Shown: positions 7,361 through 63,699 of the stretch, in pieces | Numbering within the stretch: position 1 is the stretch's first letter | How the letters are laid out: each line of letters opens with the position of its first letter | Origin: a virus | DNA: 64,000 bases | Virus record (IMG/VR): IMGVR_UViG_3300003773_000042 | Reading direction: 5' to 3' (one strand) | Notes under the pieces: generated by a model | What the model was told of the DNA's origin: nothing | The model's database searches: none | Seen by the model: the letters and a program-made list of their open reading frames with translations, nothing else | Translations under genes and position numbers: made by a program

Positions 7361-7744
7361 ATGAAAGAGGCAATTAATCCAAACAACGTGCGCAAGCTTC
7401 AGCATGAGGCTGAGGATTTCGTCAATCTGAACATCCACAGGCTGTGCACTGAGATGGTGGCTTTCGACACTTCGGGTCTGTTCGGGACAGGTGCGTTACA
7501 TAAACTGCGCATGATGTGCAGCTTTGCTGGAGCGTCTGCGCAATCGCTTGCCATTGGCATGGTCGAGACTGCGGCGATGCGTGCTGTGGCGGCGCCCGTG
7601 ACCGAAGAAGAACTTGTCGAGGCGATGGAGAAATGGGAGGGCACGCCGATTCAGGTCGATGACCAGCTTATTGCCTTCATGAACCACTTTCTGCGCGGCC
7701 GCGTTGTTTCCGTGCCGCCGGCTAAAAAACCTGTATCCAACTGA
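7361..7744 (+). CDS. Hypothetical protein
   Basis: AGGAG RBS, operon position. Confidence 0.7.
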   Translation: MKEAINPNNVRKLQHEAEDFVNLNIHRLCTEMVAFDTSGLFGTGALHKLRMMCSFAGASAQSLAIGMVETAAMRAVAAPVTEEELVEAMEKWEGTPIQVDDQLIAFMNHFLRGRVVSVPPAKKPVSN

Positions 7745-7757
7745 ATCTGGAGGAAAT

Positions 7758-8627
7758 ATGAAACGTTCGATGTTTGGCCTGGTGCTGAGCCTGGCAATGT
7801 GTGGCGCGATGGCGCAAGAAGTCGCAGTAGAAACTCCGAAAACCGACCTGGTGCCCGCTGGCCAGATGCAGCTGCCCGACGGTGTGACCACCGAGCAGAA
7901 TCCACTGAAGCAGGCCTTCCTGGTGAAATCCGCCGCGAAGCCGGCGCAGTTCCGCGCAAGCGAGAACATGCCTGAAGTCGTCAACGAGGACCTGCTGCGC
8001 GGCATGTCCGAAAGTGGCAAGACCCCGGGCAAGGTGTCGACCTTCATCGGCTACATGCCGAAACTGAAAGTGCTGCCGTGTGCCAAGGGCTGCGAAGGTA
8101 AAGACTACGAGCGTGCGGTTGCCGAGTTCATCAAGGGCTACCGCGGCGACGGCAAGTATTTCAAAGAACGTGGCGAGATGGTTGTCCAGGTTCGCTGGTA
8201 CAACACCCGTTCGTTCCTGATGCGCCAGGTGCCGTACAGCGCCGACCTGTTCGGCGTGTCGTTCATGCTGGAAGGGAAGCTGGTCTCCCTGGGCAAGAAA
8301 TCGGGTGTGGGCATCTCCGTCAGTTCGTATGAGCTGGCGAGCGACATCGGTGCGCGCCTGGCCATGGAACTGGCGTACACCCTGGGCATGGGCGCCAAGC
8401 CTACATTCCTGACCCCGATGGATGACAATGCCGCCGCAGGTATGGGTTCGGCCGTTATGGCTGCCGGCGCCAAGGTAGATGGTGTGCTGGGCGTGGAAGA
8501 CATTCGCTCCCGTATCGAGCCTGCTACCGAGGCCAATGCGAACCTTCTGCCGGCCATCGACGGCATCAAGCCTGGCGAAATCGCGCCAATCGACAAGATG
8601 CGCTACCTGAACTCGCTGATTTTCTAA
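7758..8627 (+). CDS. Exported hypothetical protein
   Basis: GGAGG RBS; signal peptide MKRSMFGLVLSLAMCGAMA. Confidence 0.75.
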   Translation: MKRSMFGLVLSLAMCGAMAQEVAVETPKTDLVPAGQMQLPDGVTTEQNPLKQAFLVKSAAKPAQFRASENMPEVVNEDLLRGMSESGKTPGKVSTFIGYMPKLKVLPCAKGCEGKDYERAVAEFIKGYRGDGKYFKERGEMVVQVRWYNTRSFLMRQVPYSADLFGVSFMLEGKLVSLGKKSGVGISVSSYELASDIGARLAMELAYTLGMGAKPTFLTPMDDNAAAGMGSAVMAAGAKVDGVLGVEDIRSRIEPATEANANLLPAIDGIKPGEIAPIDKMRYLNSLIF

Positions 8628-8639
8628 GGCGAGGGGTTG

Positions 8640-9089
8640 ATGCCTGAGTTCATCAATTATTCGACAGCAGCGCGCGTGGTGCTGCCGGCCGGCCAGGTGC
8701 CCGCGTATGCGTACAGTCTGCCCGAGCTTCAGAAGGATGCCGAAGAGCTGCACGGTATATCCCCAGAATGCACACTGGCCGCTGCGTGCGCCTTGTATGA
8801 CCGCGGTTTGCTCAGCTATCCGCGTGTGATGGGCCGCTACCTGGACATCAAGGATTTCGATGAGGCTTCGCGCATTGTGCGCGATTACCAGATGGCCACC
8901 CGTAGTCGTAGATACGACCCAACCTACCAGGGGCCGTGCTGGCAGGAGATTGAATCCATCGCGGAGAAGGGCATCGGTTTGACCTCGGTGGCAGCTGGCG
9001 CCATGTTCGGCGTCGGTATGACCAATGAAGAAGCTGTCATTTACCGCCTGGTGCATGCCCGCTTTTTGCGCTTGTTCAGGCGAGATTGA
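8640..9089 (+). CDS. Standalone type IA topoisomerase-like fragment (catalytic-Tyr region)
   Basis: YSLPELQKDAEELHGISPECTLAAACALYDRGLLSYPR resembles the Topo I/III motif L..LQ..A....G.S...T...AQ.LYE...ITYPR; only about 150 aa. Confidence 0.55.
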   Translation: MPEFINYSTAARVVLPAGQVPAYAYSLPELQKDAEELHGISPECTLAAACALYDRGLLSYPRVMGRYLDIKDFDEASRIVRDYQMATRSRRYDPTYQGPCWQEIESIAEKGIGLTSVAAGAMFGVGMTNEEAVIYRLVHARFLRLFRRD

Positions 9090-13901: not shown

Positions 13902-14613
13902 TTACTGCATCCTTTGGCGTTGATTATGCTCGGTCCACAGCTCGCGCCTGGCCTGGTTCTCAATGGAGACACACTGACAGGCGTGCATACCTGCGCAGCC
14001 GCAGATGGCCACCATGCGCGTGGTCACGTCAGCGCCAGAAATGGGGCCGCAGTCCGGGCGCCGCGCTATGCAGCGCGCCTGGTTGACACCAGAGTTGTCG
14101 AATTTCGAAAGCATCTTGCGGTTCTGGTTCAGTAGCGCAGAGCTGGTTTTTCGGGAATGACCGGGATGGCCATCGTGCGAGTACGGTACGGGTCGTTCAC
14201 GTGCTTGACCGCGCCAGAAAAGCTGAAGAGTCGTCCGGCCGGAGGATTTCGCGAAGCGGGCGCGGCCGACATCGAAGGATGGCTATTTTTTACGGGAGAC
14301 TGACCAATCCCGCTATGTGCGTTCGAATTCGAGCTCATGGCGTGCGCGTCCTATTCCTAGAGGGTGCCTGGGGTATCAAGAAGGCTGCTTAAAATTACGG
14401 TGATTTCCATCATTATATCACAAAATGACGCGAAGCTTGCGATTTGCTCGATTAATGATATACTGTGAAATGTGTAATTCGTCAAGTTGGCGATACCCTA
14501 CGGTCTCCGCAGTCTTGCGGAGTTTGTTTTCACAGATAGCTTCCAAGGAGTACGGAGCCCCGCGCGCATCGTGAGCGAGCTATCCGCTTGTCGCCACAGG
14601 CTTCATTGAACCT

Positions 14614-15165
14614 ATGTCCCAAAAAGGCCCAATCAACCAGAAGGCAGTGATTGCCTACTGCCACAAAGACAAGTCTTACCAGAAGGCGATTGAACTGGCT
14701 AAAAAGCTGTACGCAAAGCGTAAGCGCAAATACTCCGGCGTCGCTTACTGGAGCCATCCGTTGACCGTCGCTTCTCTGTTGCTGGAAGTCGGTGTGGCGA
14801 GCGAAGCCATGGTCGCATCGGCGCTGCAGGACACCCTGACCCACTCCACCCTGAAAGAAGCAACCATCCGCGCAGAATTTGGCGATGTGGTCGCAGACAT
14901 GGTGCTGGTGCTGACCCCTCTGTCGGGCGAGCTTGAAGCTCTGGCGTTTGCCGCCTATAAAGCCAAGCTGGCTGGCGCCAGCCCAGAAGTCCAGACCATC
15001 AAGCTGGCCTCCATCCTGGACGACCTGTGTGCCATTCCGACTTCGAAGGTGTCCGCCGAATCCGAATTCATCGACAACTGCGCTGAGCTGGCCGGCGTGC
15101 TGACCCTGGGCAATGCCGAACTCGCGCGCCGCGTGCAGTCGGTTATCCGTCTCGCGCGCTCCTGA
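14614..15165 (+). CDS. RelA/SpoT-hydrolase-like (Mesh1/SAH-like) HD-domain protein with a degenerate active site
   Basis: RKYSGVAYWSHPLTVA...ASALQDTLTHS...AEFGDVVADMVLVLT...IKLASILDD follows the (p)ppGpp hydrolase HD fold, but HD reads QD. Confidence 0.7.
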   Translation: MSQKGPINQKAVIAYCHKDKSYQKAIELAKKLYAKRKRKYSGVAYWSHPLTVASLLLEVGVASEAMVASALQDTLTHSTLKEATIRAEFGDVVADMVLVLTPLSGELEALAFAAYKAKLAGASPEVQTIKLASILDDLCAIPTSKVSAESEFIDNCAELAGVLTLGNAELARRVQSVIRLARS

Positions 15166-15245
15166 CCAGGCGAACAAAAAGGAGGGCTCAGGCCCTCCTG
15201 CTCGTTTAAGCCAACTGGCCGAGAAGGCCGTAATTCAGGAGTTTT

Positions 15246-17789
15246 ATGATGTTGAAGTGTTTTACCAATTGGAAGAAAGAGCGAAAGCTCAAGGGATACC
15301 GTGCCCTTTTGGAGCAAGTAAATGCGCTCGAATGGCACCGTCGGGTAGGGTCACCGGTAACGGTCGACGAGCTCCGGCTGAAGTTTGAGGACATTAAGGC
15401 CAAGGTCGACGCAGGTGCGTTGGTCGAGTCCATGCTTCCCGAGGTGTTTGCTGCAGTGCGCGAGGGCGCCAAGCTGGTTCTTAAGTTGCGCCCGTACGAC
15501 GTGCAGGTGTTGGGCGGCTTGGTGCTGTGCAACGGCGCCATTGCAGAGATGGCCACCGGTGAAGGTAAAACCTTGACCGCAGTATTCGCTGCCTACGTCC
15601 AGTACCTGAAAGGCCGCCAGGTGCACGTCTGCACCGCAAACGAATACCTGGCGCAGCGCGATGCAAACGCCATGTTCCAGCTGTACCAGCTGATGGGGGT
15701 GAGTGTTGCTGTTACCCGCCAGGCACAAGAGACGGCAGAAAAGCAGCTGGTGTACAGCTGCGACGTCGTTTATGGCACCCATTCGACGTTTGCCATGGAC
15801 TACCTGGCCGACCACCTCGCTCGCCATCCGAACGAAGTCGTTCAGACCCGCGGCCTGGGCTTTGCACTGGTTGATGAGGCCGACTCCGTGCTCATCGACG
15901 AAGCTCGCGTTCCTGTAGTGCTGACTGCGAGCAGCCCGGTTAGCGCCGAGCTCTACCAGATGATTTCCAGGTGGGCCACACAGTTGACGCGCGCTCCGGA
16001 TGCAGACGGGGAAGGGCACTTCTGGATTGACGGTAAAGACCGTCAGGCCGTGCTGACCGACGCCGGCTACGATGCCGTGAATGAATTGCTGATTGGCGCC
16101 GGATTGCTGTCCTCCAATGAAGAGGAACACTACACGGCGGACCACCAGCGCCTGCTGCATAAAGTATCGGCCGCGCTTGCCGCACGCCACATCCTGCACC
16201 GCGACCAGCATTACGTCGTCCAGGACGGCGCCATCGTGCTGGTTGATGAACTGACCGGGCGCCTGGTGCCGGGCCGCAGCTGGAGCGCAGGCCTGCAGCA
16301 AGCACTCGAAGCCAAGGAAGGTGTCGAACTGTCGCCCGAAAGCACGGTTCTGGGTCGCATCACGCTGCAAGCCTACTTCAAGCTGTATGAAGCAATGTCT
16401 GGCATGACCGGCACGGCATCGACCGAAGCAGAAGAACTGGCAGCAGTGTACGGTCTGGACGTCATCCAGATTCCCTCCAACAAGCCCCGTGTCCGCGTGG
16501 ACGAGCCGGACCGGTTCTACCGCACACAAACGGCGAAGATGGACGCTGTCGTCGCCGACGTGGTCGCCCGCCATGCCAAGGGGCAGCCGGTACTGATTGG
16601 CACTGCTTCCATTGAGCAGTCGGAGCAGCTATCGGCCATCCTTTCGGCCAAGGGCTTGAAGCACGAAGTCTTGAATGCCCGTGAGCACGAACGCGAAGCT
16701 GACATCATCTCCCAGGCCGGCGCGCCAGGTGCCATCACCGTATCGACGAACATGTCCGGCCGCGGCGTGGACATCATCTTGGGTGGCAACCCGGATGGCG
16801 AGCTTCGCCGCCAATGGAATGAGATGGGCGAGGAAGCCTGGAACGCGTTGAGCGCCGATGAACAGAAGGCCTTGGTCTTCTCGATTCGCGCGGTGCAGAC
16901 GGTGGCTGCGGAAAAGGTTCGCCAAGTCGGCGGGTTGCATATCATCGGCATGGAACGCTACGAGTCCCGCCGGATGGACCAGCAGCTGCGCGGCCGCGCG
17001 GGCCGCCAGGGTGACCCGGGCAGCTCCTGCTTCTACATCTCGTTCGAAGACCCGCTGGTAGAGAACTTCGCTGGCGAACGCCTGCGCGGCTTGCTTGCTC
17101 AGCTGGACATCAAGCCCGGCGACGAGCTGGAGTCCGTCCTGGTCAAGAAAGCGGTCGATTCGGCGCAGCGCCAGACTGAAGGCCGTGCCGCCGATGCTCG
17201 CAAGCAGCTCATCAAGTTCGATGAAGTGCTGGATAAGCAGCGCAAGGTGATTTATGCCCAGCGCGACGGCATTCTGCGCTCCGACGGCCTGCACGACTGG
17301 ATTGTCCAGCTGCGGGACGAGCAAGCTGAACTGCTCTGTGAGCGGTTCGCACCGGAGAACGAAGTGCCAGAAGCTTGGGACTTGAAGGGCCTAAGCAAAG
17401 CGCTGGCTACGTTTGGCGTGACGCTGGCGCCGGACGAAGCGTTGCGCGACATGGAACCTAAAGACCTGCTGGCCAAGGTGAAATCCCTCATGGCCGACCA
17501 GCATGCCCAGGTAGCTTCGCAAGTTCCTGCCGAGAACCTGGAAAACGCCGAACGCTTCGTTGTGCTTTCCATGATGGACCGCAGCTGGTTTGCTCACTTG
17601 GAAGACCTGGCCGAGCTGCGCCAAGGCATCAACCTGCGAGTACACGCCAAAGAGGACCCGCAGCAGGCCTACAAGAAAGACGCCTTCCATATGTTCGAGC
17701 GCATGTTGGGCGACATCAAGGTGGGATTGGTCAGCCAGGCCCTGACCTGGCGCCTCAGCGCTGGGCCGGCCGACACCCCGGCAGCGTAA
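15246..17789 (+). CDS. secA: Plasmid-borne SecA-family translocase ATPase (847 aa, no C-terminal Zn tail)
   Basis: MATGEGKT, VDEADSVLIDEAR, LQQALEAKE, GMTGTA, TNMSGRGVDI, QLRGRAGRQGDPG. Confidence 0.95.
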   Translation: MMLKCFTNWKKERKLKGYRALLEQVNALEWHRRVGSPVTVDELRLKFEDIKAKVDAGALVESMLPEVFAAVREGAKLVLKLRPYDVQVLGGLVLCNGAIAEMATGEGKTLTAVFAAYVQYLKGRQVHVCTANEYLAQRDANAMFQLYQLMGVSVAVTRQAQETAEKQLVYSCDVVYGTHSTFAMDYLADHLARHPNEVVQTRGLGFALVDEADSVLIDEARVPVVLTASSPVSAELYQMISRWATQLTRAPDADGEGHFWIDGKDRQAVLTDAGYDAVNELLIGAGLLSSNEEEHYTADHQRLLHKVSAALAARHILHRDQHYVVQDGAIVLVDELTGRLVPGRSWSAGLQQALEAKEGVELSPESTVLGRITLQAYFKLYEAMSGMTGTASTEAEELAAVYGLDVIQIPSNKPRVRVDEPDRFYRTQTAKMDAVVADVVARHAKGQPVLIGTASIEQSEQLSAILSAKGLKHEVLNAREHEREADIISQAGAPGAITVSTNMSGRGVDIILGGNPDGELRRQWNEMGEEAWNALSADEQKALVFSIRAVQTVAAEKVRQVGGLHIIGMERYESRRMDQQLRGRAGRQGDPGSSCFYISFEDPLVENFAGERLRGLLAQLDIKPGDELESVLVKKAVDSAQRQTEGRAADARKQLIKFDEVLDKQRKVIYAQRDGILRSDGLHDWIVQLRDEQAELLCERFAPENEVPEAWDLKGLSKALATFGVTLAPDEALRDMEPKDLLAKVKSLMADQHAQVASQVPAENLENAERFVVLSMMDRSWFAHLEDLAELRQGINLRVHAKEDPQQAYKKDAFHMFERMLGDIKVGLVSQALTWRLSAGPADTPAA

Positions 17790-17822
17790 CCGCAAGGAGG
17801 CACGAAGTAGGTAGAAATGCAT

Positions 17823-17839
17823 TTCTTCCTATACTAAAA
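17823..17839 (+). promoter_or_regulatory. 17-bp promoter-like element TTCTTCCTATACTAAAA
   Basis: Exact repeat at 22771-22787; each copy lies at the head of a block of pilus genes. Confidence 0.65.
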
Positions 17840-17960
17840 ATCGTGCCTCCGAGCAGTTGCTTTGCTCGGCTTAATTTTTATGCAATCGGATACACAAGTG
17901 ACGACACCTTCCACTCATAACACGGGTGCCTTGCGCCCTGCAGTAGGCATCCGTAAAGGG

Positions 17961-18701
17961 ATGAAGTGCCTGGTTTTGGCCTCTATTTTTATGGCAGCAA
18001 CGACCGGCGCACGCGCTGACGTTTTCGGCGGCGGCGCCGCCTCCGCCCCAAAAGCTGAAGCCGCAGCGCTGCTCGAACGCATCGCAGCCATGGAGCGCGA
18101 AATCAAGGAGCTGAAGGAAAAGGGTCCTGTGGCTAATCCGAATTCTGGCGGCCAGCCGGGCGTCAAGCAGCCTGGCGGCAAGACTGCTGGGCATAAGGCC
18201 GGCCTGAAACTGCCGCCGCCACCTCCGGGTCTCGACGGTCTGCCATCGGGTGGCTCCGACGAGCGCGAGCGCATGCTGGTGCAGAAAGAGCTGACCCACG
18301 AGGTGATTGGCACCGTCAACGGCAAGCTCATGGTCCGTGACGGCGACGCACGATTCATTCTGAGCCAGGAAGAATTCACTGCATTCGAGAAGAAGAAGCG
18401 CGAAAAGGTGGTTGCTCGAATGAAGCTCGAAGCCATGACCGAGGGCGATGGCGGCCGGGTGAATTTCCCGCAACTTAGCCAGCTGCCACCCCCTCCTCCA
18501 GATATTTCAGGCGCCGCGGCTGACACCGTCAATACGGGAGCCGCGGCTGTAGGCCGGGCCGCTCAAGTTGTGGAGCAGAGCCGGGCGATTGAAGCCAATG
18601 GTGGTCGCTTGCCCTCGCCGCCTCCTGGCGCGACCCCAGCAAAGAATACGGGAGCTGCATCCGCAGCACAGCCTAAACCGGCCCCTACTGTGAAGAAGTA
18701 A
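17961..18701 (+). CDS. Exported Pro-rich pilus accessory protein (PilP-like position)
   Basis: Signal peptide MKCLVLASIFMAATTGARA, coiled coil, poly-Pro; sits before the secretin; alternative start at 17880. Confidence 0.6.
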   Translation: MKCLVLASIFMAATTGARADVFGGGAASAPKAEAAALLERIAAMEREIKELKEKGPVANPNSGGQPGVKQPGGKTAGHKAGLKLPPPPPGLDGLPSGGSDERERMLVQKELTHEVIGTVNGKLMVRDGDARFILSQEEFTAFEKKKREKVVARMKLEAMTEGDGGRVNFPQLSQLPPPPPDISGAAADTVNTGAAAVGRAAQVVEQSRAIEANGGRLPSPPPGATPAKNTGAASAAQPKPAPTVKK

Positions 18702-18723
18702 ATAAGGTACCTCTAGGATTAAC

Positions 18724-20355
18724 ATGAAAAAACTGATTCTCTCCGCCCTGATTGCAAGCGCACTGGCGGGATGCGCGTCGTTCCCTGATAACTATCAGAA
18801 GCCGCTGGGCAATGAAGATATCACGGCGCAAAAGCGCGACGAGTGGGGCGATATCCCGGATGTCACGTTCGTGCAGTCCAAGGGTGGTATCGCTGTTCGC
18901 AAGTACAACGAAATTCCGGCGGCGGTCCGTGAAAAGGTCGTGAACCTGTCGTTCGACGCCGGCACCAAGCCCACCGTCAGCGACGTGGTGTTTGCGCTGA
19001 GCGCACAAGGCTTCCGCCTGATTTCGCGCCTGGACGACGACACCATGAAGAAGGAATTCACCACTCGCTCGTTCCAGGGTAATGCAGGTGAGCTGCTGAA
19101 CGAAATCAGCGACACCTACAACGTGGCCTACGAATACCGCAATGGCGCCGTGTACCTGGTTGAGAGCAACAAGTTCTCAGCCTCGCTGCCGCAGCACAAG
19201 GATTTCATGGCGAACGTGGAGAAAGCTCTGAAAGAACTGGGCGCCACCGAAACCCGCTCGGACGTTTTGTCCGGCCAGGTGTACTACCGCGCTAAGCCTG
19301 ATGTGGCAGAGTACGTGGCCGAGTACCTGGACACCATTGCAAAGAACGCCGCCATGGTGAAACTGCAAGTCGCCGTGCTGACCGTCAGCATGAACCGCGA
19401 CGTTAACCTGGGCTTTGATTGGGCCAAACTGGCTGTTCAGCGTGGTTCGGGCGGCATGACCTCGGAACTGGGCAATATCTTCAACAACGGCACAAACACG
19501 GGTGCCGGAACCGGCACCAACACCGGTACTGGTTCGGCTGGCTCCAACGGTTCCACCGGCAGCAATACTGCCAATAACGGAACCACTGGCAACACCGGCA
19601 GTACAGGCACTGGCTCCGTGGTCACGGATACAGCCAAGAAGCTGGTGACCGGTTCGCTGGCCAGCTTCATCGGTAGCGATGGCTTTGGCTACAAGTTTGC
19701 CAACGACGCGTTCAGCCTGACCGCAGCGCTCAAGGCATTGTCGACCTACGGCAACGCGCGCACCGAGCAGAATGTGGTGCTAAGCACGCTGTCCGGCCTG
19801 CAGGTGAAAATCAGCTCGGGCGACGACATCCCGTACGTGAAGTCGATTGGTTCGGCTACCGCGGCCGGCGGCGCAACCACTGGTTCGTCGCAGACCGACG
19901 TCATCAAGTCGGGCCTGAAACTGGATGTCACGCCGCAATTCGATTCGTCGGACGGCAGTCTGGTGACCCAGGTGAAGGTCGACATGTCCACGCTGGTAGG
20001 CTTCCGCGAACTGTCCGCCGGCCAGAATCTGGGCACCATGTCCCAGCCGCAGATGAAGAACCTGGGCTTCGAGAACTTCGGCCGCTTGATGGCCGGCGAA
20101 ACCATCATTGTTGGCGGTATCACTTACGACCAGCTGTCGAACAACTACACCAACTTCCCAGGCATGGAGAAGATGGCTATGGGCAGCAAGGCCGAGAAGG
20201 TGACCCGCAACGCCATCTACATCGTGATTCGCCCAACGGTGCTGATTTTCACGCCTAAGGCCAACGAATACAACGCCAAGCTGCTTGAATTGCGGGCGCA
20301 GCGCGAAGCTGAGAAGGCCGCTGGCGAGACTGCTAAGAAAAGCGAGGTGCGCTAA
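18724..20355 (+). CDS. Lipoprotein secretin (PilN/BfpB/GspD-like)
   Basis: Lipobox ALAGC; Gly/Thr/Ser-rich linker; secretin-type C-terminus (SGLKLDVTP, GETIIVGGI, IYIVIRP). Confidence 0.85.
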   Translation: MKKLILSALIASALAGCASFPDNYQKPLGNEDITAQKRDEWGDIPDVTFVQSKGGIAVRKYNEIPAAVREKVVNLSFDAGTKPTVSDVVFALSAQGFRLISRLDDDTMKKEFTTRSFQGNAGELLNEISDTYNVAYEYRNGAVYLVESNKFSASLPQHKDFMANVEKALKELGATETRSDVLSGQVYYRAKPDVAEYVAEYLDTIAKNAAMVKLQVAVLTVSMNRDVNLGFDWAKLAVQRGSGGMTSELGNIFNNGTNTGAGTGTNTGTGSAGSNGSTGSNTANNGTTGNTGSTGTGSVVTDTAKKLVTGSLASFIGSDGFGYKFANDAFSLTAALKALSTYGNARTEQNVVLSTLSGLQVKISSGDDIPYVKSIGSATAAGGATTGSSQTDVIKSGLKLDVTPQFDSSDGSLVTQVKVDMSTLVGFRELSAGQNLGTMSQPQMKNLGFENFGRLMAGETIIVGGITYDQLSNNYTNFPGMEKMAMGSKAEKVTRNAIYIVIRPTVLIFTPKANEYNAKLLELRAQREAEKAAGETAKKSEVR

Positions 20356-21155
20356 TGAAGGCGTTCTTTGACCGCCTGGACGCAAAGGCTGCTGCCTTCT
20401 TCAAAAGCAAGTTCAAGAAGGCTCCGAAGACTGCGACTCCCATTGCACCTGAAGACCTGGGCGCGCCCATCGTCATCATGATGGGTTCGCTCTCTGGCTG
20501 CACCATGAAGGATGCAGTGGCGTACGTGCGTGGTCTGGCCGAAACCTACATCACGGCCCATGAAGTAGGGCGCATGCGGGTCTTTGAAGACAAGCCGCGC
20601 GGCCGCTTCATCTACGAGCTGCACGAAGGTGGGCCAGGTCGGTCAATCGCCGACAAGGTGCTCGAGCAGCTGGTCGAAGAAAAGAAGGTGCGCATCGAGC
20701 TCATCAACGGTGCACACGTGGTCATCGAAGAAACGCACGGCGAGATTTTCTCGCTGGTGTACCCAGCCGCCGATGAGGAGCTGCCCCAGCACCTCTCGGG
20801 GCTGGAAGCTGTCGAAGATGAGAGCGTTCTCTGGAACATTGAAGACCTGTGCAGCACGGAGCCGCTGAAAGAGTTGTACCCGCAGAATAAGAAGCTGGTG
20901 CACATCGGCGCGGTGTTCTTGGGTATCTCGATTGCTGCATTCATCCTGACAGGCGGTATCTATACTGTCCTGAAATCCGGGATGCTCGACAGCGACGCAG
21001 TGCTCAGCCAAGCAAAGGCTGGTCACGTCGGCGACGCCGTCGACAACCCGGTTTGGCAACTCGACAAAGCCCGTATGGCAGCAGACGCACAAGGCAAGAC
21101 CGTGCGCACCTTGAAAAAGGGCGCAACTGGTTGGAGCTGGGAGATTGAAAAGTGA
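20355..21155 (+). CDS. Pilus accessory inner-membrane protein (PilO-like)
   Basis: Translationally coupled to the secretin; single TM near the C-terminus. Confidence 0.55.
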   Translation: MKAFFDRLDAKAAAFFKSKFKKAPKTATPIAPEDLGAPIVIMMGSLSGCTMKDAVAYVRGLAETYITAHEVGRMRVFEDKPRGRFIYELHEGGPGRSIADKVLEQLVEEKKVRIELINGAHVVIEETHGEIFSLVYPAADEELPQHLSGLEAVEDESVLWNIEDLCSTEPLKELYPQNKKLVHIGAVFLGISIAAFILTGGIYTVLKSGMLDSDAVLSQAKAGHVGDAVDNPVWQLDKARMAADAQGKTVRTLKKGATGWSWEIEK

Positions 21156-22038: not shown

Positions 22039-22239
22039 ATGGATTTCATCAAGTTGGCACGACGTGCTGATGCCGTCATCGGACTGGTTTTTTTGGCTCT
22101 TGCTGCTTACTGGATTACCCATGGCACTTATCTCTGGGGCGGGGCTTCTCTGATTTCTGCGGTTGCGAGTTTCGCGTCCGCCAAGTACGTGCCCGCACGG
22201 TGGCTGGTAAAGCGGCTGATGCTGGCGCGGTTGAAATGA
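22039..22239 (+). CDS. Small two-TM membrane protein
   Basis: TAGG RBS, two hydrophobic segments, inside the pilus cluster. Confidence 0.65.
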   Translation: MDFIKLARRADAVIGLVFLALAAYWITHGTYLWGGASLISAVASFASAKYVPARWLVKRLMLARLK

Positions 22240-22256: not shown

Positions 22257-22691
22257 ATGTTTTCACTCATTATCGCCATCGTCGCGGTTGCTCTTATCGT
22301 GTTGCTCGTAGTCGCAACGATGTACCACGGCGGCACCGATTCGCTTACTAAAGGTAAGCAGGAGGCCGAAGTGGCTCGTTCGCTGAACGAAGTCTCGCAA
22401 ATCAAAGCTGCGCTGACCCAGTACCATGCGGACACCGACACCCACGCTACGACTCTGCAGGACCTGGTGCCGAAATACCTATCGTCGGTACCAACCGGCT
22501 GGGGCGTTGAAGTCCCAAGCCAAGTTGCATTCGAATCGAGCCGTCTGCTCGTGGGCAGTGAAGCCCAAAAGCTGGACTCCTGCAAGGAAATCAACGGCCG
22601 CCTGGGCAAGACCGGCGAACCGCCTTCCTGTGCGGACATCGAATCGGACTTCACGGGTTGCTGTGTGGTGCCAGAAGGCGCCAGCAACTAA
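22257..22691 (+). CDS. Minor pilin-like protein, leaderless
   Basis: MFSLIIAIVAVALIVLLVVATMYHGG N-terminus paralogous to 21521; LVPKYLSSVP motif; in-frame TGA at 22242. Confidence 0.8.
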   Translation: MFSLIIAIVAVALIVLLVVATMYHGGTDSLTKGKQEAEVARSLNEVSQIKAALTQYHADTDTHATTLQDLVPKYLSSVPTGWGVEVPSQVAFESSRLLVGSEAQKLDSCKEINGRLGKTGEPPSCADIESDFTGCCVVPEGASN

Positions 22692-22817: not shown

Positions 22818-24287
22818 TTGGATAAGATTTTGGGAGAGCTGCTGCTCAAACGCGGCCTAATCACGAGCGCGATGCTTGGTGCGGCCATCATGGAGCAGTC
22901 CGTGACCAAGGAACGCCTCGGAAAAGTCCTTGTACGCAATGGCTTTTTGCGCCAGGATGAATTGCTGCTGTTGATGCGGGAAATCAACCCCAACTCGATG
23001 CACGATGAAGGGGTTTTTGAAACGACCATCCCCGCCAGCATTCTCATCAACAGCCGCACGATGATTGTGGCGCTGGTTGAAGGCACCATCTACCTCAGCA
23101 CATTGTCCTCGCCGCATGTGGTGCGGCGCCTCATCGAGCCATTCACGGCCGGCCAGCGGATTGAGTTCACCGCGGCCAATCCGGTCCGTATGCAGGAATA
23201 TTTCCTGCAGCTGAACGAGAGCACCGACACCAGCAACATGTTGTCCTGGGAGCGCATCTTCTATGAAGCGATGCAGCTTGGTTCTTCGGACATCCACATC
23301 ATTCCGCGGTACGCCAGCTACACGGTCATGCTCCGCCGGGACGGCATTTTGACCATCACCCATGAGGGCACTCGAGACGAGTACACCGCGCTCGTCAGCC
23401 GCGTCAAAGACTTGTCCAAGATGGACATGGCCGAGCGCCGGCGCCCGCAGGATGGTAGTTTTTCGATGGACTATTCGGGACGCGTCGTTAACTTCCGCGT
23501 GTCGACTAATCCAACCGTCGATGGCGAATCGATGGTTGTTCGTATTCTGGACCCAGATGCGGTCAACAAGAAAATGGATAGCCTGGGTATCACCCACCTG
23601 GAACTGTGGCGCAAGGCTGTTTCTTATCCTAACGGACTGTGCCTGATTTGCGGACCTACTGGTTCAGGCAAGACGACTACGCTGGCGGCTACTGCGCGCG
23701 AGATGAACTTCCTTGAGCGGGCCATCTGTACGGTTGAAGACCCAGTCGAGAACCGCATTCCCTACGCTCGCCAGGTGAACGTCAACCCCTCGGTTGGACT
23801 CGACTTTGCAACTGCTATTCGCGCCTTCATGCGTCAGGACCCGGACGTCATCATTACTGGTGAAATCCGTGACATCGAGACGGCTCGCAATGCGCTGAAG
23901 GCCAGTGAGACTGGTCACTTGTCCCTGGGCACGCTGCACACCAACTCGATTCGCTCAACGATGACCCGTCTTCGCGACATCGGCGTCCAGCCATTCGAGT
24001 TGCTGCACTTGCTACGCGGAGTCATGGTCCAAAAGCTTATGCGCGTTTACTGTACGAGCTGCCAGGGTAAGGGTTGCAAGGCCTGCGGCCGGACGGGCTA
24101 TCGCGGGCGTGAAGTAATTTCGGAAGTGGCTGCCTTTGACAGCGAAGAGGAAGTTCAAGCATGCATCGACGGCAAGATTAGCTGGATGACGCTCGAGCAG
24201 GATGCCAAAGCAAAGGTGCTTGCTGGTCGCACCTCAGAAGCTGAATTTGAGCGCGTACTGGGTAAAAAACTTTCTGACATCAAATGA
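22818..24287 (+). CDS. PilB/GspE-family assembly ATPase
   Basis: GPTGSGKTTT, TVEDPVE, RQDPDVIITGEIRD, TLHTN, CxxC-CxxC. Confidence 0.95.
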   Translation: MDKILGELLLKRGLITSAMLGAAIMEQSVTKERLGKVLVRNGFLRQDELLLLMREINPNSMHDEGVFETTIPASILINSRTMIVALVEGTIYLSTLSSPHVVRRLIEPFTAGQRIEFTAANPVRMQEYFLQLNESTDTSNMLSWERIFYEAMQLGSSDIHIIPRYASYTVMLRRDGILTITHEGTRDEYTALVSRVKDLSKMDMAERRRPQDGSFSMDYSGRVVNFRVSTNPTVDGESMVVRILDPDAVNKKMDSLGITHLELWRKAVSYPNGLCLICGPTGSGKTTTLAATAREMNFLERAICTVEDPVENRIPYARQVNVNPSVGLDFATAIRAFMRQDPDVIITGEIRDIETARNALKASETGHLSLGTLHTNSIRSTMTRLRDIGVQPFELLHLLRGVMVQKLMRVYCTSCQGKGCKACGRTGYRGREVISEVAAFDSEEEVQACIDGKISWMTLEQDAKAKVLAGRTSEAEFERVLGKKLSDIK

Positions 24288-25462
24288 AGAACTTCAAAGT
24301 AAAAATCGCGGCTGGCCGTAAAGTCGCTGAGCTGACCATTCCTGCACAAAACGCGGCTGACGCGCGGAAGCAAGCTTCGAAGCGAGGCCAGGTACTATCC
24401 GTCACTTCGGCCGGCGGAGGCTCGAACAGCCGGTTGTCCCTGGCGGACCGCCTGATGTTCTTCCAGCGCCTGGCCTCGATGCTCAGTTCTAAGGTTGGCG
24501 CATCTGAAGCACTAGAAATCATCTACCAGTCGTTCACGGGCTCCATCCGCGAGGCTGCGCGAATGCTGCGGGACTCCATCGTAGGTGGCGCGACCCTCCA
24601 CGAAGCAATGGAACAGGCCGGGCCTAAGTTCTTCCCTGAAACGGTCGTTGCCATTGTGAAGACCGGTTCGCGCGGCGGTGACCTTTCGTTCGCCATCCGT
24701 GAAGCCGCTCGCTTCGAAAGCGAGCTGGCGCAGGTGCGAAAGGACTCCAGCCGCGGCATTGGCAGTGCGCTGGCCGGCTTCTTTGCAGGCGTTGTTACCA
24801 TCCTGGCGTCGACTTACTATGTGGCGCCGATGATTCTCAATTCCAGCCTGGTTGAAGCGACGGGCGGCTCAGACGTTGGCTGGATTATGACCATGGCGAA
24901 CGTCATCTCCCTCATTGCTTTGATTGTGTCGGTCATCATGGGCGGTGTGTTTTTCTACGGAGTGGTTGTTCGACCATTTGCGCCGGCCGCTGTCGACCGC
25001 GGCATTCTCCGGATTCCATTCTATCGGGATATGGCGCTGGCCAAGACCAACTACATGGTGTTCTTCGGCCTGGCGGTTCTGCTGAAGGCAGGCTTGCGTG
25101 TTGAGGAGGCCCTGGAGCTCACGATTGATGCGGCGCCAAAGGGTGAGCTGCGCAATGACCTGGAGCGCGCGTTGAAGGCAATCGTAAAGGGTAGTCCGAA
25201 GCCATGGCCTTATTACATGACGATGCTGCACCCTACGGACAAGGCGGCACTGGCCACCGCACAGGACCGCACCCAGACCGCACGAACGATTGAAGAACTG
25301 GCGGTGACCTATCAGAGCCTGTATCGCACCCGCCTGGAGCTGTTCGTGCCTGTCGTACAGATTTTTTCGGCAATTTTCCTGGCACTGGCCGGCTTCGTGC
25401 TGTTCGGCGTGTCCGTAGTTCCGCTGATGCAGACCACTTCTTCGATTATGAAAATGCTCTAA
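24284..25462 (+). CDS. PilC/GspF-family platform protein
   Basis: Three TM segments, GspF-like repeats (FFQRLASML, FFGLAVLLKAGL); ATGA overlap with the ATPase. Confidence 0.85.
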   Translation: MKNFKVKIAAGRKVAELTIPAQNAADARKQASKRGQVLSVTSAGGGSNSRLSLADRLMFFQRLASMLSSKVGASEALEIIYQSFTGSIREAARMLRDSIVGGATLHEAMEQAGPKFFPETVVAIVKTGSRGGDLSFAIREAARFESELAQVRKDSSRGIGSALAGFFAGVVTILASTYYVAPMILNSSLVEATGGSDVGWIMTMANVISLIALIVSVIMGGVFFYGVVVRPFAPAAVDRGILRIPFYRDMALAKTNYMVFFGLAVLLKAGLRVEEALELTIDAAPKGELRNDLERALKAIVKGSPKPWPYYMTMLHPTDKAALATAQDRTQTARTIEELAVTYQSLYRTRLELFVPVVQIFSAIFLALAGFVLFGVSVVPLMQTTSSIMKML

Positions 25463-25465: not shown

Positions 25466-25963
25466 ATGATTAACCTCATCATCATCATCATCAGCATCGG
25501 CTTGCTGGCCGCCGTAACGGCAGCAACGCTTAACTACGTGCCTTTCGATGCGCACTTGCGCCAGCTGATGCAAACGGAAGCTGGCCAGGGTGTGAAAAGT
25601 CTCGAGCAAGCAGTTTCCCGTTACCTTGTGACCCATCGTGACGTGGACGGCAACATCGAGTACCCAGGCGACGGCGTGAACATGGTTGCTGCCGTGACGC
25701 CAACCTACGGCTTCCTGCCAGCGAACGTACGCAAGGAAATGACGTGGGACATCGCCACGGGCACCGTCAACGGACTGCCGGCCGTGGGCATCTGCTTGCG
25801 CCCGATTCTCACGTCGACTCCGATGCAGCGCGACATCATCAAGAGCCTGCAGGCCCAGATGCCAATCGGCTCGACCTTCGTGAGCACAAGCTGCTACGCC
25901 TCGAGCGACACCGCTGGCGGCAGCTATTTGACCCGCTGGGTGCCACTCGCTCACCTAAATTGA
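25466..25963 (+). CDS. Minor pilin-like protein, leaderless
   Basis: MINLIIIIISIGLLAAVTAATLNY hydrophobic N-terminus; in-frame TAA at 25460. Confidence 0.7.
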   Translation: MINLIIIIISIGLLAAVTAATLNYVPFDAHLRQLMQTEAGQGVKSLEQAVSRYLVTHRDVDGNIEYPGDGVNMVAAVTPTYGFLPANVRKEMTWDIATGTVNGLPAVGICLRPILTSTPMQRDIIKSLQAQMPIGSTFVSTSCYASSDTAGGSYLTRWVPLAHLN

Positions 25964-26130: not shown

Positions 26131-26586
26131 ATGTTTTCCCTGATTATCGCAATCGTTTCCATCGCTCTGGTCGTAGCACTCGTAGCAGCAACCATGTACC
26201 ACGGCGGCGACACCCTGACCCAGGGCCGCACCACCGCTGACGCCGCTGCGTTCGTTTCGGGCGCCCAGCAAATCGCCGGCGCACAAGTGATGCACCTGTC
26301 GCTGGAAGGCGTTGCCGCTTCGACCGTGGCCGGCGGCACTGCTGGCACCGACCTGGTGCTGGACAAGTACCTGGCTTCGTCCCCAGTGGTTAAGGGCGGC
26401 GCCTGGGCCCTGGACACCGCTGCGAAGCTGGTGACCAACTCCGTGACCACCGACGCGGTTTGCACCCAAATCAACAAGTCCGCTGGCGTGGCCGCTGCTA
26501 AGCAGAGCGCCGCCGCTGTTGCCGACTTCGCCGGCCTGCCATACGGCTGCGAATCCGCAACCAAGACCTTCCAGTTCAAGTACTAA
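26131..26586 (+). CDS. Type IV pilin-like protein, leaderless (copy 2)
   Basis: 142/151 aa identical to 21521-21976; own AT-rich promoter region with CTATACT at 26061; in-frame TAA at 26122. Confidence 0.85.
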   Translation: MFSLIIAIVSIALVVALVAATMYHGGDTLTQGRTTADAAAFVSGAQQIAGAQVMHLSLEGVAASTVAGGTAGTDLVLDKYLASSPVVKGGAWALDTAAKLVTNSVTTDAVCTQINKSAGVAAAKQSAAAVADFAGLPYGCESATKTFQFKY

Positions 26587-28737: not shown

Positions 28738-28760
28738 GGTGGCAAGTCCGGATAGGGCCG

Positions 28761-28973
28761 TTACGCCTGTGCGGCGACGGTAGCGACAATGCGCAGGAAC
28801 GCTTGCGACACGTTGTTGTACTGGCCGCTGGACGCCATCATCTGGCGAATCGTGCCCACGCGGCCGTGCAGGTTGTCGGCGAAGGTGTAGTGGCAGTGTG
28901 GACAGCCCTTGTTGCGCTTCGGGATGGCGACGGCACATGCCGGGCATACTGCGGTGTCCATGGTGATTTTCAT
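28761..28973 (-). CDS. Small zinc-ribbon protein
   Basis: CPAC...CPHC; directly upstream of the MTase. Confidence 0.55.
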   Translation of the reverse strand: MKITMDTAVCPACAVAIPKRNKGCPHCHYTFADNLHGRVGTIRQMMASSGQYNNVSQAFLRIVATVAAQA

Positions 28974-29147
28974 TGGTGTCCTTGCTGATGCACTGGTACA
29001 AAACTCAAGTACAAACTGAACTTGCAGTATACCATAATAAGCCTTATATTGCTCGACATTTTCATATTGAATACCTTCTCGCTCACACTGCACTTGGTGC
29101 TTTGGGCCTATACGGTGTAGGTCATTAACTAATTGAAAGGCACTATC

Positions 29148-32203: not shown

Positions 32204-32205
32204 GA

Positions 32206-32466
32206 TTACCACTCCCCCGAGCTTGCGGCCGACGTATCCCGCACGCCGACCTTTACTTCGAGCTCGAGTGCAGCAAGCCAGCTAAACAGCTGCTTGACGC
32301 TGATTTCTTCTGGGTGAGACTCCAGATGCGAGATGCGGTTCTGGCTCAATCCGACGCGGCTTGCTATTGCAGCCTGGGTGAGCTTGTGCCTTTTCCGGGC
32401 GGAGACTAGCAGCTGTCCGAGCTGCGGCGCGGTGACGATGAGATGGGAAGTCGGAGCGAAGGACAT
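32206..32466 (-). CDS. hipB: HipB-like XRE HTH antitoxin
   Basis: QLGQLLVSARKRHKLTQAAIASRVGLSQNRISHLE; abuts hipA. Confidence 0.9.
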   Translation of the reverse strand: MSFAPTSHLIVTAPQLGQLLVSARKRHKLTQAAIASRVGLSQNRISHLESHPEEISVKQLFSWLAALELEVKVGVRDTSAASSGEW

Positions 32467-60462: not shown

Positions 60463-61188
60463 ATGTTTAAAACAACCCTTCTTGCAATGATGCTGGCCAT
60501 CGCTGGTTTGCCTGCTTACGCCAGCGACTATTTTATCGTGGTGCCAGTAAAGGGTAAGACCTTTAACGAAAGCGCTATCTCGGTCACACTAGCACCGAGT
60601 TCGCTGCCTGTTGCACTGGCAGGCCAGGCCTACAGCTACGACTTCAAGCACAACTTGACTGTCACTGGGGATTCGGCATTCATTGGCGCCGGTGTCGGAT
60701 GGACCGTTACACAGGGCTCCGTACCCGCAGGTTTGGCTGTCGATACTCATGGCGTGTTGGCCGGTACACCCTCTGCAGCAGGGACATATTTGTTCACCCT
60801 CAAGGCATCCTATCGTACCAAAGCAGGACAACAACTCTACCAGGTCGAAGTCACCAATCCTTTCCCGATGGCGACCAATGCGGGTTTGACGTTTGTTGTT
60901 CCAAGCATGGCGCTACAGTCGCTGACGGCAACCCGTGCGGCGTGCGGTGCCGTCATCAACGGTGTATCAGGCTGGCGTGTGCCAACTTCGGACGAGCTGG
61001 GTGCGATGTTTGGAGCTAAGGGTGCGCCTGCGCTGTCTGCTGCAGGCTGGCCAACGGATACTGGAGACTGGTACTGGACTGACACCGCGTATGGCGGTGG
61101 TAAATGGATTGTGCAAAAACCGTACAACAACTCCGCCAGCGTCTGCTACGACGGCGATGTTTGTGCACGCTCCGTTTGCGTTCGATAA
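60463..61188 (+). CDS. Secreted adhesin-like protein: Ig-like (He_PIG) plus DUF1566-like domain
   Basis: Signal peptide, DYFIVVPVKGK, VPAGLAVD..GVLAGTP, GWRVPTSDEL...GWP....YWT; CTATACTAAAA at 60430. Confidence 0.75.
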   Translation: MFKTTLLAMMLAIAGLPAYASDYFIVVPVKGKTFNESAISVTLAPSSLPVALAGQAYSYDFKHNLTVTGDSAFIGAGVGWTVTQGSVPAGLAVDTHGVLAGTPSAAGTYLFTLKASYRTKAGQQLYQVEVTNPFPMATNAGLTFVVPSMALQSLTATRAACGAVINGVSGWRVPTSDELGAMFGAKGAPALSAAGWPTDTGDWYWTDTAYGGGKWIVQKPYNNSASVCYDGDVCARSVCVR

Positions 61189-62400: not shown

Positions 62401-63699
62401 ATGAAAAAGACCATCCTCGCAGCGCTGTTGGCGCTCGCTGGCCATTCCGCAATGGCCAAAGATTACTTCCTTGTCATCCCCGTTTTGGGTAAGACGGACA
62501 ACATCAGCGCGATTCAAGTTGCGCTGAATCCGGCCGTGCTGCCTGCCGCTCAGGTAGGGGATGACTACGCCTTCAATTTCGCACCGAACCTGGTCATTAT
62601 CGGCGACCCGAAATATAACGGCACTGGTATCGACTGGGCTGTAAGCCAGGGGAACCTGCCCGCCGGCTTGGTGCTGGACGTGAAGTCTGGCGCCGTGAGT
62701 GGTGTGCCTACTTCCGATGGAACCTTCGGGTTCAACCTGGCTGCCAGCTACAAAACTAAGTTGGGCGAGCAAGCCTATCAAATTACGGTGGCCGCAGCGA
62801 AGCCGAACTTCGTCGTGACCGGCAATCCCCCATTGAACCAGGCGCTGGTGGGCGCAACAATGGGCGTGGCGTCGCTGCCGAGCGTCATCAACATGAAGAA
62901 CACTGGCAAGGCGGCGGGCAACTTCACTTTGCCACCCTTGGCCGGCGCCGATGCCGCACAGTTCAATGCGTCGACGACCTGCAACAACGTTCCCGTCAAT
63001 GGAAACTGTGCCGTGTCGGTAGCTTGGACGCCATCTGCCAACGCAGCTGCGGCGACCATGACCCTTGCGGGCACTACCTATAGCTTTGCGGGCAACATGA
63101 CGAAGTACGCAAACTGGGACCAGGCTAACACTGGGGTAGGGTACACACTGTCTAACAACAGCCTGACCGTCACGGGTGTCGGCGCCAATACGGGGGGCAC
63201 ACGCGGCAATATCGGCAAGTCCTCTGGCAAGTGGTACTGGGAGGTTTCGGTTGACCCGGGTCGTGACCGAACGTCCGTTATCGGCATTGCGAAGTCGACC
63301 TTCTCAATGACGGCGGCGAACGGCTGCTTCGGCTGCAACCCAAGCAATACGGCTCCTTGGCGTGGGCTGGCGCCGGCGAGCACTACTCAAGTTGTTGGCT
63401 GGCCAGGTACGACGGCTACCTCCACCAATCTGGCTGGAACCACGCTTTCTACGAAGGGTGCTAACTTTGGCGACACCTACGGCCTGGCGCTGGACATCGA
63501 TGCGCAAACGCTGACCATCTACTACACGCCGGCTGGCGGCAGCTGCCTCAACCATTCCATCCTGCAGTTTGCAGCAATCGGCGCGGGTACTTGGTATCCA
63601 GCAGTTTCTACTGCCGGCCGGGATTGGATTGTCACAGCAAACTTCGGCATTCAGGCATTTAAGTGCCCAGCACCAACCGGTTACCAACTCCTCAAATAA
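62401..63699 (+). CDS. Secreted adhesin-like protein: Ig-like domains plus SPRY/B30.2-like domain
   Basis: Signal peptide, DYFLVIPVLGK, LPAGLVLD..SGAVSGVP, SSGKWYWEV...GLALDID...WYPAV; CTATACT at 62368. Confidence 0.8.
   Translation: MKKTILAALLALAGHSAMAKDYFLVIPVLGKTDNISAIQVALNPAVLPAAQVGDDYAFNFAPNLVIIGDPKYNGTGIDWAVSQGNLPAGLVLDVKSGAVSGVPTSDGTFGFNLAASYKTKLGEQAYQITVAAAKPNFVVTGNPPLNQALVGATMGVASLPSVINMKNTGKAAGNFTLPPLAGADAAQFNASTTCNNVPVNGNCAVSVAWTPSANAAAATMTLAGTTYSFAGNMTKYANWDQANTGVGYTLSNNSLTVTGVGANTGGTRGNIGKSSGKWYWEVSVDPGRDRTSVIGIAKSTFSMTAANGCFGCNPSNTAPWRGLAPASTTQVVGWPGTTATSTNLAGTTLSTKGANFGDTYGLALDIDAQTLTIYYTPAGGSCLNHSILQFAAIGAGTWYPAVSTAGRDWIVTANFGIQAFKCPAPTGYQLLK

Follow-up and report, generated by a model that had tools for sequence, protein, structure and literature searches.

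A tail-less SecA clade linked to a pilus/secretin module on giant plasmid-like elements of Burkholderiales

The SecA gene and its neighbourhood

Accessory SecA proteins are a textbook feature of Gram-positive bacteria and mycobacteria. Here we describe a SecA paralogue encoded in a 64,000-nucleotide stretch of DNA listed in IMG/VR as a virus record (IMGVR_UViG_3300003773_000042; hereafter, the window), DNA that has been found in rhizosphere metagenomes. An initial annotation, made from the letters alone, had described a complete SecA that carries every helicase motif, has no SEC-C zinc tail and ends in PAA, and had read it as a plasmid-specific accessory SecA in a Gram-negative host.

The open reading frame (ORF) is intact: positions 15246-17789 of the plus strand comprise 847 codons with zero internal stops, and an AGGAG ribosome-binding site lies 8-12 nucleotides ahead of the ATG. 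Public gene calls begin the protein at the second methionine, at 15249, which gives 846 amino acids (P0002). The translation holds the motifs MATGEGKT, VDEADSVLIDEA, GMTGTA, TNMSGRGVDI and QLRGRAGRQGDPG, and matches the Pfam models SecA_DEAD, SecA_PP_bind, P-loop_SecA and SecA_SW (PF07517, PF01043, PF21090 and PF07516) with E-values of 1e-94 to 3e-28 and near-full profile coverage. It also exceeds the cut-offs of two NCBIfam SecA equivalog models (NF009538, 897 bits versus 814; TIGR00963, 831 versus 800), and its top match among solved structures is E. coli SecA (E 2e-203). Pfam did not find the SEC-C domain (PF02810) in this protein, which stops at about residue 832 of E. coli SecA and has ...GPADTPAA as its last residues. 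The uninterrupted frame, the four domains and the equivalog scores bear out the complete SecA of the initial annotation, as the absent PF02810 match and the C-terminus do its missing zinc tail. By its sequence, then, the gene encodes a member of the SecA family with an intact, presumably ATP-hydrolysing motor.

SecA stands between a short gene for a degenerate HD_4-like protein and a cluster in which a secretin, a PilB-type ATPase and a PilC-type platform protein occur together in the window (Pfam Secretin, T2SSE and T2SSF), interspersed with pilin-like genes (Table 1).

Table 1. Features of the window around SecA, with two distal genes for secreted proteins
Position	Strand	Feature	Support
14437..14464	+	Promoter-like site TTGCGA-N16-TATACT, written with TG as (TG)ATATACT, in front of the HD_4-like gene and SecA
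14614..15165	+	Degenerate small-alarmone-hydrolase-like (HD_4) protein, 183 amino acids, upstream of SecA	Pfam HD_4 E 3.8e-12
15180..15199	.	Hairpin with perfect 8-bp stem in the 80-bp HD_4-SecA spacer, no plus-strand T-run
15246..17789	+	Tail-less SecA paralogue, 847 amino acids (846 from second Met, 15249)	Translation, Pfam, NCBIfam, trees, alignments
17829..17835	+	CTATACT box (-10-like), between SecA stop codon and first pilus-module gene
17849..17879	+	GC-rich hairpin then T-run: possible terminator of the SecA unit or 5' untranslated structure of the pilus unit
17961..18701	+	Secreted Pro-rich protein, 246 amino acids, signal peptide ...TGARA/DVFGG (cleavage at slash); counterpart precedes the secretin in all related loci
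18724..20355	+	Secretin, lipoprotein signal LAG/C, R64 PilN / BfpB type	Pfam Secretin; MshL/PilQ/GspD models below cut-off
20355..21155	+	Bitopic membrane protein of the module, 266 amino acids; 35-47% identity in L152, L155, L156
21152..21517	+	Membrane protein of the module, 121 amino acids
21521..21976	+	Leaderless pilin-like protein, MFSLIIAIV..., Ile5, two C-terminal Cys; family of 359 clusters
22039..22239	+	Protein with two transmembrane segments, 66 amino acids, conserved in the module
22257..22691	+	Second leaderless pilin-like protein, 144 amino acids
22818..24287	+	PilB/GspE-type ATPase, MshE-like cyclic-di-GMP-binding N-terminus	T2SSE E 9e-95; NF053729 45 bits versus 38
24284..25462	+	PilC/GspF-type platform protein	Pfam T2SSF
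25466..25963	+	Leaderless pilin-like protein, 165 amino acids, MINLIIIIISIG...
26131..26586	+	Near-copy of the 21521 pilin, own CTATAC box in front
60463..61188	+	He_PIG protein, secreted; a canonical Sec signal peptide precedes SDYFIVVPVKGK; candidate cargo for Sec
62401..63699	+	He_PIG/SPRY protein, secreted; a canonical Sec signal peptide precedes KDYFLVIPVLGK; candidate cargo for Sec

This arrangement recurs in related DNA. Nine distinct SecA-bearing contexts were compared (the window and loci L003, L004, L005, L006, L151, L152, L153 and L155), and the secretin module lies downstream of SecA in all of them, over SecA identities of 43-76%. In eight, a signal-peptide protein and the secretin follow SecA directly; in L005, they are parted from it by a six-gene insertion with TelA, VWA and Fic genes. 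The full array as far as the ATPase and platform genes was seen in seven loci, L152 ending inside its last gene, downstream of the ATPase, and the contigs of L005 and L006 ending at or soon after the secretin. The HD_4-like gene is upstream of SecA in eight contexts and absent in L155, and the genes further upstream vary from locus to locus. A search from the pilin side, in which SecA was not presupposed, covered four independent loci and met SecA in two (L153/L154 and L155). Together, these comparisons show a linkage between SecA and the pilus module that is strong and ancient, and not obligatory in cis. Two further features of the related loci were noted: L152 carries two tandem T2SSE ATPase genes encoding 307 and 488 amino acids (17813-20327), and in L156 (4346-5677) and L157 (4464-5840) unrelated proteins of about 450 amino acids, assigned to no family, stand upstream of the signal-peptide protein.

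Partner genes for a dedicated translocation system were sought in the same DNA. No SecY-type protein was found in any window ORF of at least 300 amino acids, all of which were covered, or in about 40 smaller ones, a scan that does not formally exclude the tiny secE and secG, and SecA is the only Sec component in the Pfam tables of 10 related loci. Likewise, neither the scanned window ORFs nor the related loci showed any gene for a SecY2, Asp, SecB-like or glycosyltransferase partner. The earlier statement that secY, secE and other housekeeping neighbours are missing thus stands as regards SecY-type proteins; secE and secG are too small for it to be upheld formally.

A separate SecA clade and its signatures

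A homologue search that took in 5.8 billion proteins returned a sharply bounded SecA family: about 50 protein clusters with 49-76% identity to the query, all of them lacking SEC-C. Its members measure 831-867 amino acids, except for one of 915 and three of 964 with an insertion; a SecA of the latter sublineage, encoded at L152:10001-12895, has its large insertion in the NBD2 variable region. The next matches below the family are ordinary betaproteobacterial SecAs of about 910 amino acids, with 43-45% identity and SEC-C present. Once the L155 SecA (43%) is included, the clade spans 43-76% identity.

Phylogenies were computed as quick IQ-TREE searches, with support from the SH-like approximate likelihood ratio test (SH-aLRT) only. 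In a 69-row maximum-likelihood tree, the family (21 rows) forms one clade (support 100%) whose stem measures 0.77 substitutions per site. This clade falls outside the chromosomal beta clade (SH-aLRT 99) and the gamma clade, and is set apart from the SecA2 references of Tsukamurella, Clostridium, Virgibacillus and Staphylococcus. With the longest branches removed, a second tree agrees, and adds the L155 SecA as the deepest member with 99% support. A grouping of the family with the SecA of the Pseudomonas megaplasmid pMPPla107, two IMG/VR SecAs and a Methylosinus fusion joins long branches and was not relied on. The protein also scores far below the cut-off of every NCBIfam SecA2 model (TIGR03714, 602 versus 930; TIGR04221, 557 versus 725; TIGR04397, 741 versus 1085; NF012136, 556 versus 1100).

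The family was not met in sampled genomes of Burkholderiales. An ordinary SecA is present in 396 of the 401 species genomes sampled, and a family member in none of them, the best identity being 47%. A megablast search of PLSDB with the SecA gene and with 50 kb of the window gave no match, and IMG/VR yielded SecA matches only at 40% identity or below. In a phage collection, the SecAs were all of cellular type and came from contaminated or mis-binned records, and no family member was present in the best 80 loci of a genome-contig scan that gave at least 600 matches, mostly to cellular SecAs. A protein identical to the window SecA, by comparison, occurs on 16 contigs from several samples. In the literature searched, a SecA encoded by a plasmid or megaplasmid of Gram-negative bacteria is not discussed in any paper that we found, the sole trace being an entry in a supplementary table for pMEGA4.

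Based on these sequence comparisons, the family is a previously undescribed SecA clade borne by a mobile element in Gram-negative Burkholderiales. The initial annotation had proposed a phylogeny against host SecA and SecA2 clades, with chromosomal clustering and an unconserved context as the pattern of a recent capture; the family instead forms a separate clade, in a context that is conserved. Its broader proposal of a plasmid-specific accessory SecA in a Gram-negative host holds in so far as this is a mobile-element paralogue in a clade, supported at 99-100%, outside cellular beta and gamma SecAs. The protein belongs to no known SecA2 family, and the plasmid nature of the element is likely.

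Several signatures distinguish the clade. A C-terminal linker and SEC-C domain are typical of, if not universal in, SecA of SecB-bearing Proteobacteria. Both are missing in every family member, judged by the PF02810 column and the alignment, whereas the cellular matches listed alongside carry PF02810. In a published survey, the zinc domain was missing in only 2 of 69 SecAs from SecB-bearing species, and E. coli SecA deprived of the whole tail was functional in vivo, with basal ATPase activity raised more than 10-fold and a secB-like cold sensitivity (PMC6620043). Having lost the tail, the family SecA should therefore be unable to bind SecB and, by analogy with the E. coli protein, should also be free of tail-mediated autoinhibition.

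Within the motor, the Walker B motif reads DEAD in 50 of 50 family members versus DEVD in 71 of 71 cellular matches. The tip of the two-helix finger is Tyr in all 68 scorable cellular SecAs; in the family (n = 50), it is His in 38 members, Phe in 3, Leu in 3, Ala in 2 and Tyr in 1. The prevalence of His deserves attention because the finger-tip Tyr has been reported to tolerate bulky hydrophobic replacements only (PMC3101351). The NBD2 variable region exceeds that of E. coli by about 13 residues and includes an MGExAW motif in 29 of the 50 members.

These departures occur on a strongly conserved background. Over 26 members that are 48-76% identical, 118 alignment columns are invariant, including GEGKT, DEAD, GRGVDI and RGRxxRQG. 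As a reference we took 34 cellular SecAs from many phyla, in which 283 positions outside the tail reach at least 90% conservation: the family retains the residue at 150 of these positions, has fixed another at 19, and is relaxed at 46. The family-fixed switches include V211A, T511V, H562Y, R596E/I597N, S350D and Q796K, and both the finger and the PPXD hold such changes. Because of the 118 invariant columns, the 150 retained positions and the 19 switched ones, the pattern is that expected of a selected, specialised motor rather than of a decaying protein.

A recently captured chromosomal secA, or a pseudogene in decay, was considered as another reading of the gene, and nothing beyond overall SecA homology speaks for it. 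Identity to any cellular SecA is 47% or less, the clade is separate and deep with 43-76% internal identity, the frame is intact with invariant catalytic motifs, and the identical protein recurs on the 16 contigs, so that this reading is left with next to no probability. It is contradicted by the separate deep clade and the identities of at most 47% in the 401 Burkholderiales genomes.

Possible roles of the element-borne motor

The role proposed here builds on what the sequences show: an intact gene, a clade of its own, signatures shared across the family and a linkage that is conserved. We favour, at a probability of about 0.55, an element-encoded accessory SecA that is SecB-independent, exports the element's own envelope and surface proteins through the host SecYEG, and is associated with the pilus/secretin module. 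The motor, belonging to the giant plasmid-like element and not to the host, would dock on the host SecYEG, since no channel gene was seen nearby, and would thereby add host-independent translocation capacity for envelope proteins of the element. Its tail-less form would probably be de-repressed and would not bind SecB. The gene is usually inherited at the head of a type IVb-like secretin/ATPase/platform module built from leaderless pilins, in company with the gene for the degenerate HD_4-like protein. The cargo is predicted to comprise the secretin (a lipoprotein), those module proteins that have signal peptides, the pilins' periplasmic domains and many secreted He_PIG surface proteins with a 'DYF motif'; ATP hydrolysis by the protein and its use of the host channel are likewise predictions. 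The suggestion of the initial annotation that the protein serves the secretin lipoprotein, pilins or adhesins, or redirects host SecYEG, is likewise a hypothesis.

Sec-dependent proteins are numerous on the element: the lipobox secretin, the signal-peptide proteins, pilins with a periplasmic cysteine pair, and He_PIG/RCC1 proteins. Secreted proteins with He_PIG, RCC1 or Ig-like domains, two of them in the window (Table 1), recur beside the module in related loci (L004:21605, L005:4642/6507, L151:21223/21805 and L156:13255/18762). They have an ordinary Sec signal peptide and, immediately behind its cleavage site, a common mature N-terminus, x-D/N-Y/F-F/Y-V-V-x-P-V-x-G-K, and are of the normal SecA substrate type. 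This DYF motif may be a sorting or attachment signal.

The organization of transcription bears on how closely SecA is tied to the module. The transcription signals are consensus matches, from which we infer function. CTATAC occurs 35 times in the window versus 8.7 expected, a four-fold excess that 0 of 100 shuffles reached. Most copies lie ahead of genes, and those at 21436, 22777 and 26061 precede pilin and ATPase genes; the hexamer resembles an element-specific promoter box of the -10 type. SecA probably shares a transcription unit with the HD_4-like gene, judging from the promoter-like site ahead of the pair.

Five points weigh against the favoured role. SecA and the pilus genes apparently each have a promoter-like box of their own, and a hairpin plus T-run lies in between; for this reason we regard SecA as a neighbour of the pilus genes and not as an established part of their operon. 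The signal peptides of the candidate cargo are ordinary ones, which the host SecA should be able to handle. L156 and L157 have leaderless pilins and a secretin, and neither SecA nor the HD_4-like gene lies within the visible 20 kb. These two loci indicate that the pilus module can exist in the absence of an adjacent SecA, which could sit elsewhere on those elements, and their flanks give no support to a strict pilus-specific requirement for SecA in cis. The related elements also share ancestry, so part of the adjacency may reflect inherited gene order and not functional coupling. Lastly, His at the finger tip of 38 of the 50 members could signal altered or reduced translocation activity.

If adjacency were indeed no more than backbone order, SecA could be a generic, housekeeping-like spare copy with no tie to the pilus, of the kind that giant plasmids might gather to cut their dependence on hosts or their cost to them. 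SecA-like genes lie away from any such pilus module on pMPPla107 and on plasmid 2 of Variovorax PBL-H6; on pMEGA4, SecA is gene 1376 and the pilins are genes 44-45 (PMC12633466); and L156 and L157 have no adjacent SecA. The authors of the pMPPla107 study argue that megaplasmids keep housekeeping-type genes (PMC6482414). A spare copy would not be expected to lose its tail in all members, to fix 19 substitutions and to replace the finger-tip Tyr, and the adjacency to the secretin module has outlasted the reshuffling of flanks across a split as deep as 43% identity. We therefore consider a spare copy unlikely.

The pilins raise the opposite prospect, that of a motor with a single class of substrate. 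They begin M-F-S-L-I-I-(T/A)-I-V wherever the start is readable (seven of the nine SecA contexts, and with the same N-termini in L156 and L157), and in several loci a stop codon lies 0-11 codons upstream of the start. There is no leader peptide, and position 5 is not Glu (in the window it is Ile). The first 30 or so residues are extremely conserved (MFSLIITIVSIALVVALVAATMYHGGD; window, L003, L004 and L151-L157), and a homologous pilin is named 'PilS N-terminal domain' by one source. The scanned ORFs of the 64-kb window included no A24 prepilin peptidase. Two C-terminal cysteines suggest that the pilins have a periplasmic domain in need of translocation.

SecA could accordingly be a substrate-dedicated, SecA2-like motor for these leaderless, Glu5-less pilins, enforcing the N-in/C-out topology that is normally set by the leader. 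Consistent with such a role are the uniform pilin start and the nearby upstream stops, a signal-anchor with no positively charged n-region, the peptidase result, the cysteine pair, the co-inheritance of SecA and pilins down to 43% SecA identity, and the family-fixed changes in the finger tip and PPXD. It is countered by L156 and L157, whose pilins share these N-termini with no SecA adjacent, and by the apparently separate transcription units of SecA and the pilin genes; direct recognition of pilins is itself only hypothetical. On balance, dedication to pilins is rather improbable. A more specific version, which we hold to be quite improbable, is a prepilin-peptidase-independent route to type IV filaments in which SecA would read the n-region-less signal-anchor and drive the pilin C-terminal domain across the membrane, with the HD_4-like protein as cofactor or regulator. 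If true, the pilin route would be the first substrate-dedicated SecA2-type system in Gram-negatives, borne by a mobile element.

The HD_4-like protein itself has Lmo0812 (4yf1) as its closest solved relative and also aligns with the (p)ppGpp-hydrolase domain of RelA. The catalytic HD...ED reads Q/E-D/E...T/V-H/R in eight of eight aligned homologues, and because of this replacement the protein is probably not a hydrolase and looks to be a conserved pseudo-hydrolase. A complex prediction for SecA residues 1-831 with residues 16-183 of the HD_4-like protein scored 0.00, a model result that counts neither for nor against an interaction.

A motor that is presumably de-repressed, with family-fixed changes in motor and finger, might also serve to interfere. 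It could compete or form mixed dimers with the host SecA at SecYEG, confer resistance to a SecA inhibitor or toxin, or play a non-Sec role with the pilus platform, and the element is rich in defence- and counter-defence-type genes (HipA, GmrSD_N, NADAR/Phage_30_3 and methyltransferase-Mrr_N). Nothing specific favours such functions, and the protein keeps all the SecA domains for normal SecY docking and preprotein clamping; we rate takeover or interference as very improbable. The accessory motor for envelope and surface proteins of the element thus remains the role that we prefer.

The element and its relation to known systems

The contigs that carry SecA family members and their pilins are 333-720 kb long; the window itself is part of a contig of 572 kb. 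Burkholderia ubonensis assemblies with the family have contigs of 593, 640, 640 and 643 kb, a Burkholderia multivorans assembly has one of 631 kb, and one family member is attributed to Comamonas thiooxydans. In one relative, a coupling protein of the VirD4/TraG type is encoded at a distance of 8 kb from the module (L157:18196-20112). The window consists mostly of genes with no family assignment; those assigned include an AAA_25 primase/helicase-type protein, HipA, methyltransferase-Mrr_N, a T4 gp30.3-like protein, a GmrSD_N protein, an exonuclease, GNATs, an EamA transporter and He_PIG proteins. It has zero tRNA and zero Rfam matches, and searches with PHROGs gave generic replication matches only (primase/helicase and exonuclease) and zero structural genes, by which a phage is neither proven nor excluded. 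The most economical reading of the element is a giant conjugative plasmid, although it may alternatively be a phage-plasmid or another extrachromosomal element. The plasmid backbone proposed in the initial annotation is accordingly likely, given the AAA_25 replicative helicase, the absence of tRNA and Rfam matches in the window, the relatives of 0.33-0.72 Mb and the one VirD4/TraG protein.

Elsewhere in the window, the defence- or counter-defence-type genes stand downstream of the module and encode an N6/N4 methyltransferase fused to Mrr_N (27460-29001, minus strand), a T4 gp30.3-like (NADAR/Phage_30_3) protein (30339-30788, plus), HipA (30857-32212, minus) and a GmrSD_N-domain protein (37568-38191, minus). 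On the other side, the ORF at 8637-9089 (plus) matches the middle of Topoisom_bac, and the preceding plus-strand ORFs at 7361-7744 and 7704-8627 have no match; the stretch 7361-9089 may represent a topoisomerase gene that is split or has diverged strongly.

The window SecA is colinear with E. coli SecA (2fsf, 2vda and 6s0k) to about residue 832, with NBD1, PPXD, NBD2, HSD, HWD and the two-helix finger present, and family members end almost exactly where the engineered tail-less E. coli protein does (SecA-delta-CTT / N95). It differs from E. coli SecA in being 42-44% identical and element-borne with no secM upstream, and in its DEAD for DEVD, the replacement of Tyr794, mostly by His, the insertion of about 13 residues in NBD2 and the 19 family-fixed substitutions. 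Like the SecA2-only systems (Mycobacterium, 4uaq; Clostridioides difficile, 6sxh/6t4h; Listeria; Bacillus), it is a shorter SecA with no C-terminal tail and no dedicated SecY2, and as a working analogy it would presumably use the general channel for a subset of proteins. Unlike them, it is found in a Gram-negative host as a mobile-element gene, retains an intact HWD and lies outside the SecA2 families. The accessory Sec system of streptococci and staphylococci (SecA2-SecY2-Asp1-3-Gtf) likewise places a SecA paralogue inside a locus for a surface-adhesive structure, but no SecY2, Asp or glycosyltransferase genes were found here, and the candidate cargo does not have the long leaders of that system.

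SecA paralogues on giant replicons of 0.8-1.6 Mb offer a second comparison. That of pMPPla107 is also tail-less and joins the family on a weakly reliable long branch; it differs in being 36% identical, in keeping the finger-tip Tyr and in lying near an A24 prepilin peptidase with no leaderless-pilin module. The SecA of Variovorax PBL-H6 plasmid 2 differs in having kept the zinc tail. pMEGA shares the possession of two near-identical major pilins and differs in that its SecA is far from the pilin genes. The papers that describe pMPPla107 and pMEGA (PMC6482414, PMC12633466) do not discuss these SecA-like genes.

Three such loci may be recorded individually. On pMPPla107, a 972-kb Pseudomonas megaplasmid, an 848-amino-acid SecA homologue is labelled 'DEAD/DEAH box helicase' and has an A24 peptidase, a type IV coupling protein and ParM nearby (L131:10001-12547). 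The Variovorax plasmid, which is linear and 839 kb long, encodes a very divergent SecA of 854 amino acids with a zinc tail, surrounded by hypothetical genes (L138:7782-10346). On Methylosinus pMSC49a, a gene labelled 'prepilin peptidase' encodes 638 amino acids with 37% identity to SecA residues 64-663 (L132:9797-11713) and has RND-adaptor, TolC and PqqD-family genes and a giant LamG protein as neighbours; judged by sequence and setting, it resembles a SecA-motor-like protein in an export locus.

The module itself follows the order of type IVb pilus loci such as that of R64 (pilN-O-P-Q-R-S) and Bfp/Tcp, with a lipoprotein secretin, two small membrane proteins, a PilB-like ATPase, a PilC-like platform and pilins. 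Unlike those loci, its pilins have neither leader nor Glu5, no prepilin peptidase was found, and SecA and the degenerate HD_4-like protein head the cluster.

A distinct and ancient element-borne SecA clade in Burkholderiales would carry the concept of the accessory SecA to diderm bacteria and to mobile DNA. The B. ubonensis and B. multivorans isolates with related elements provide a tractable handle, and bear both on the independence of giant plasmids from host machinery and on how leaderless pilins enter the membrane. The variation at the finger tip (His, Phe, Leu, Ala and Tyr) offers, in addition, a ready test set for models of the SecA mechanism.

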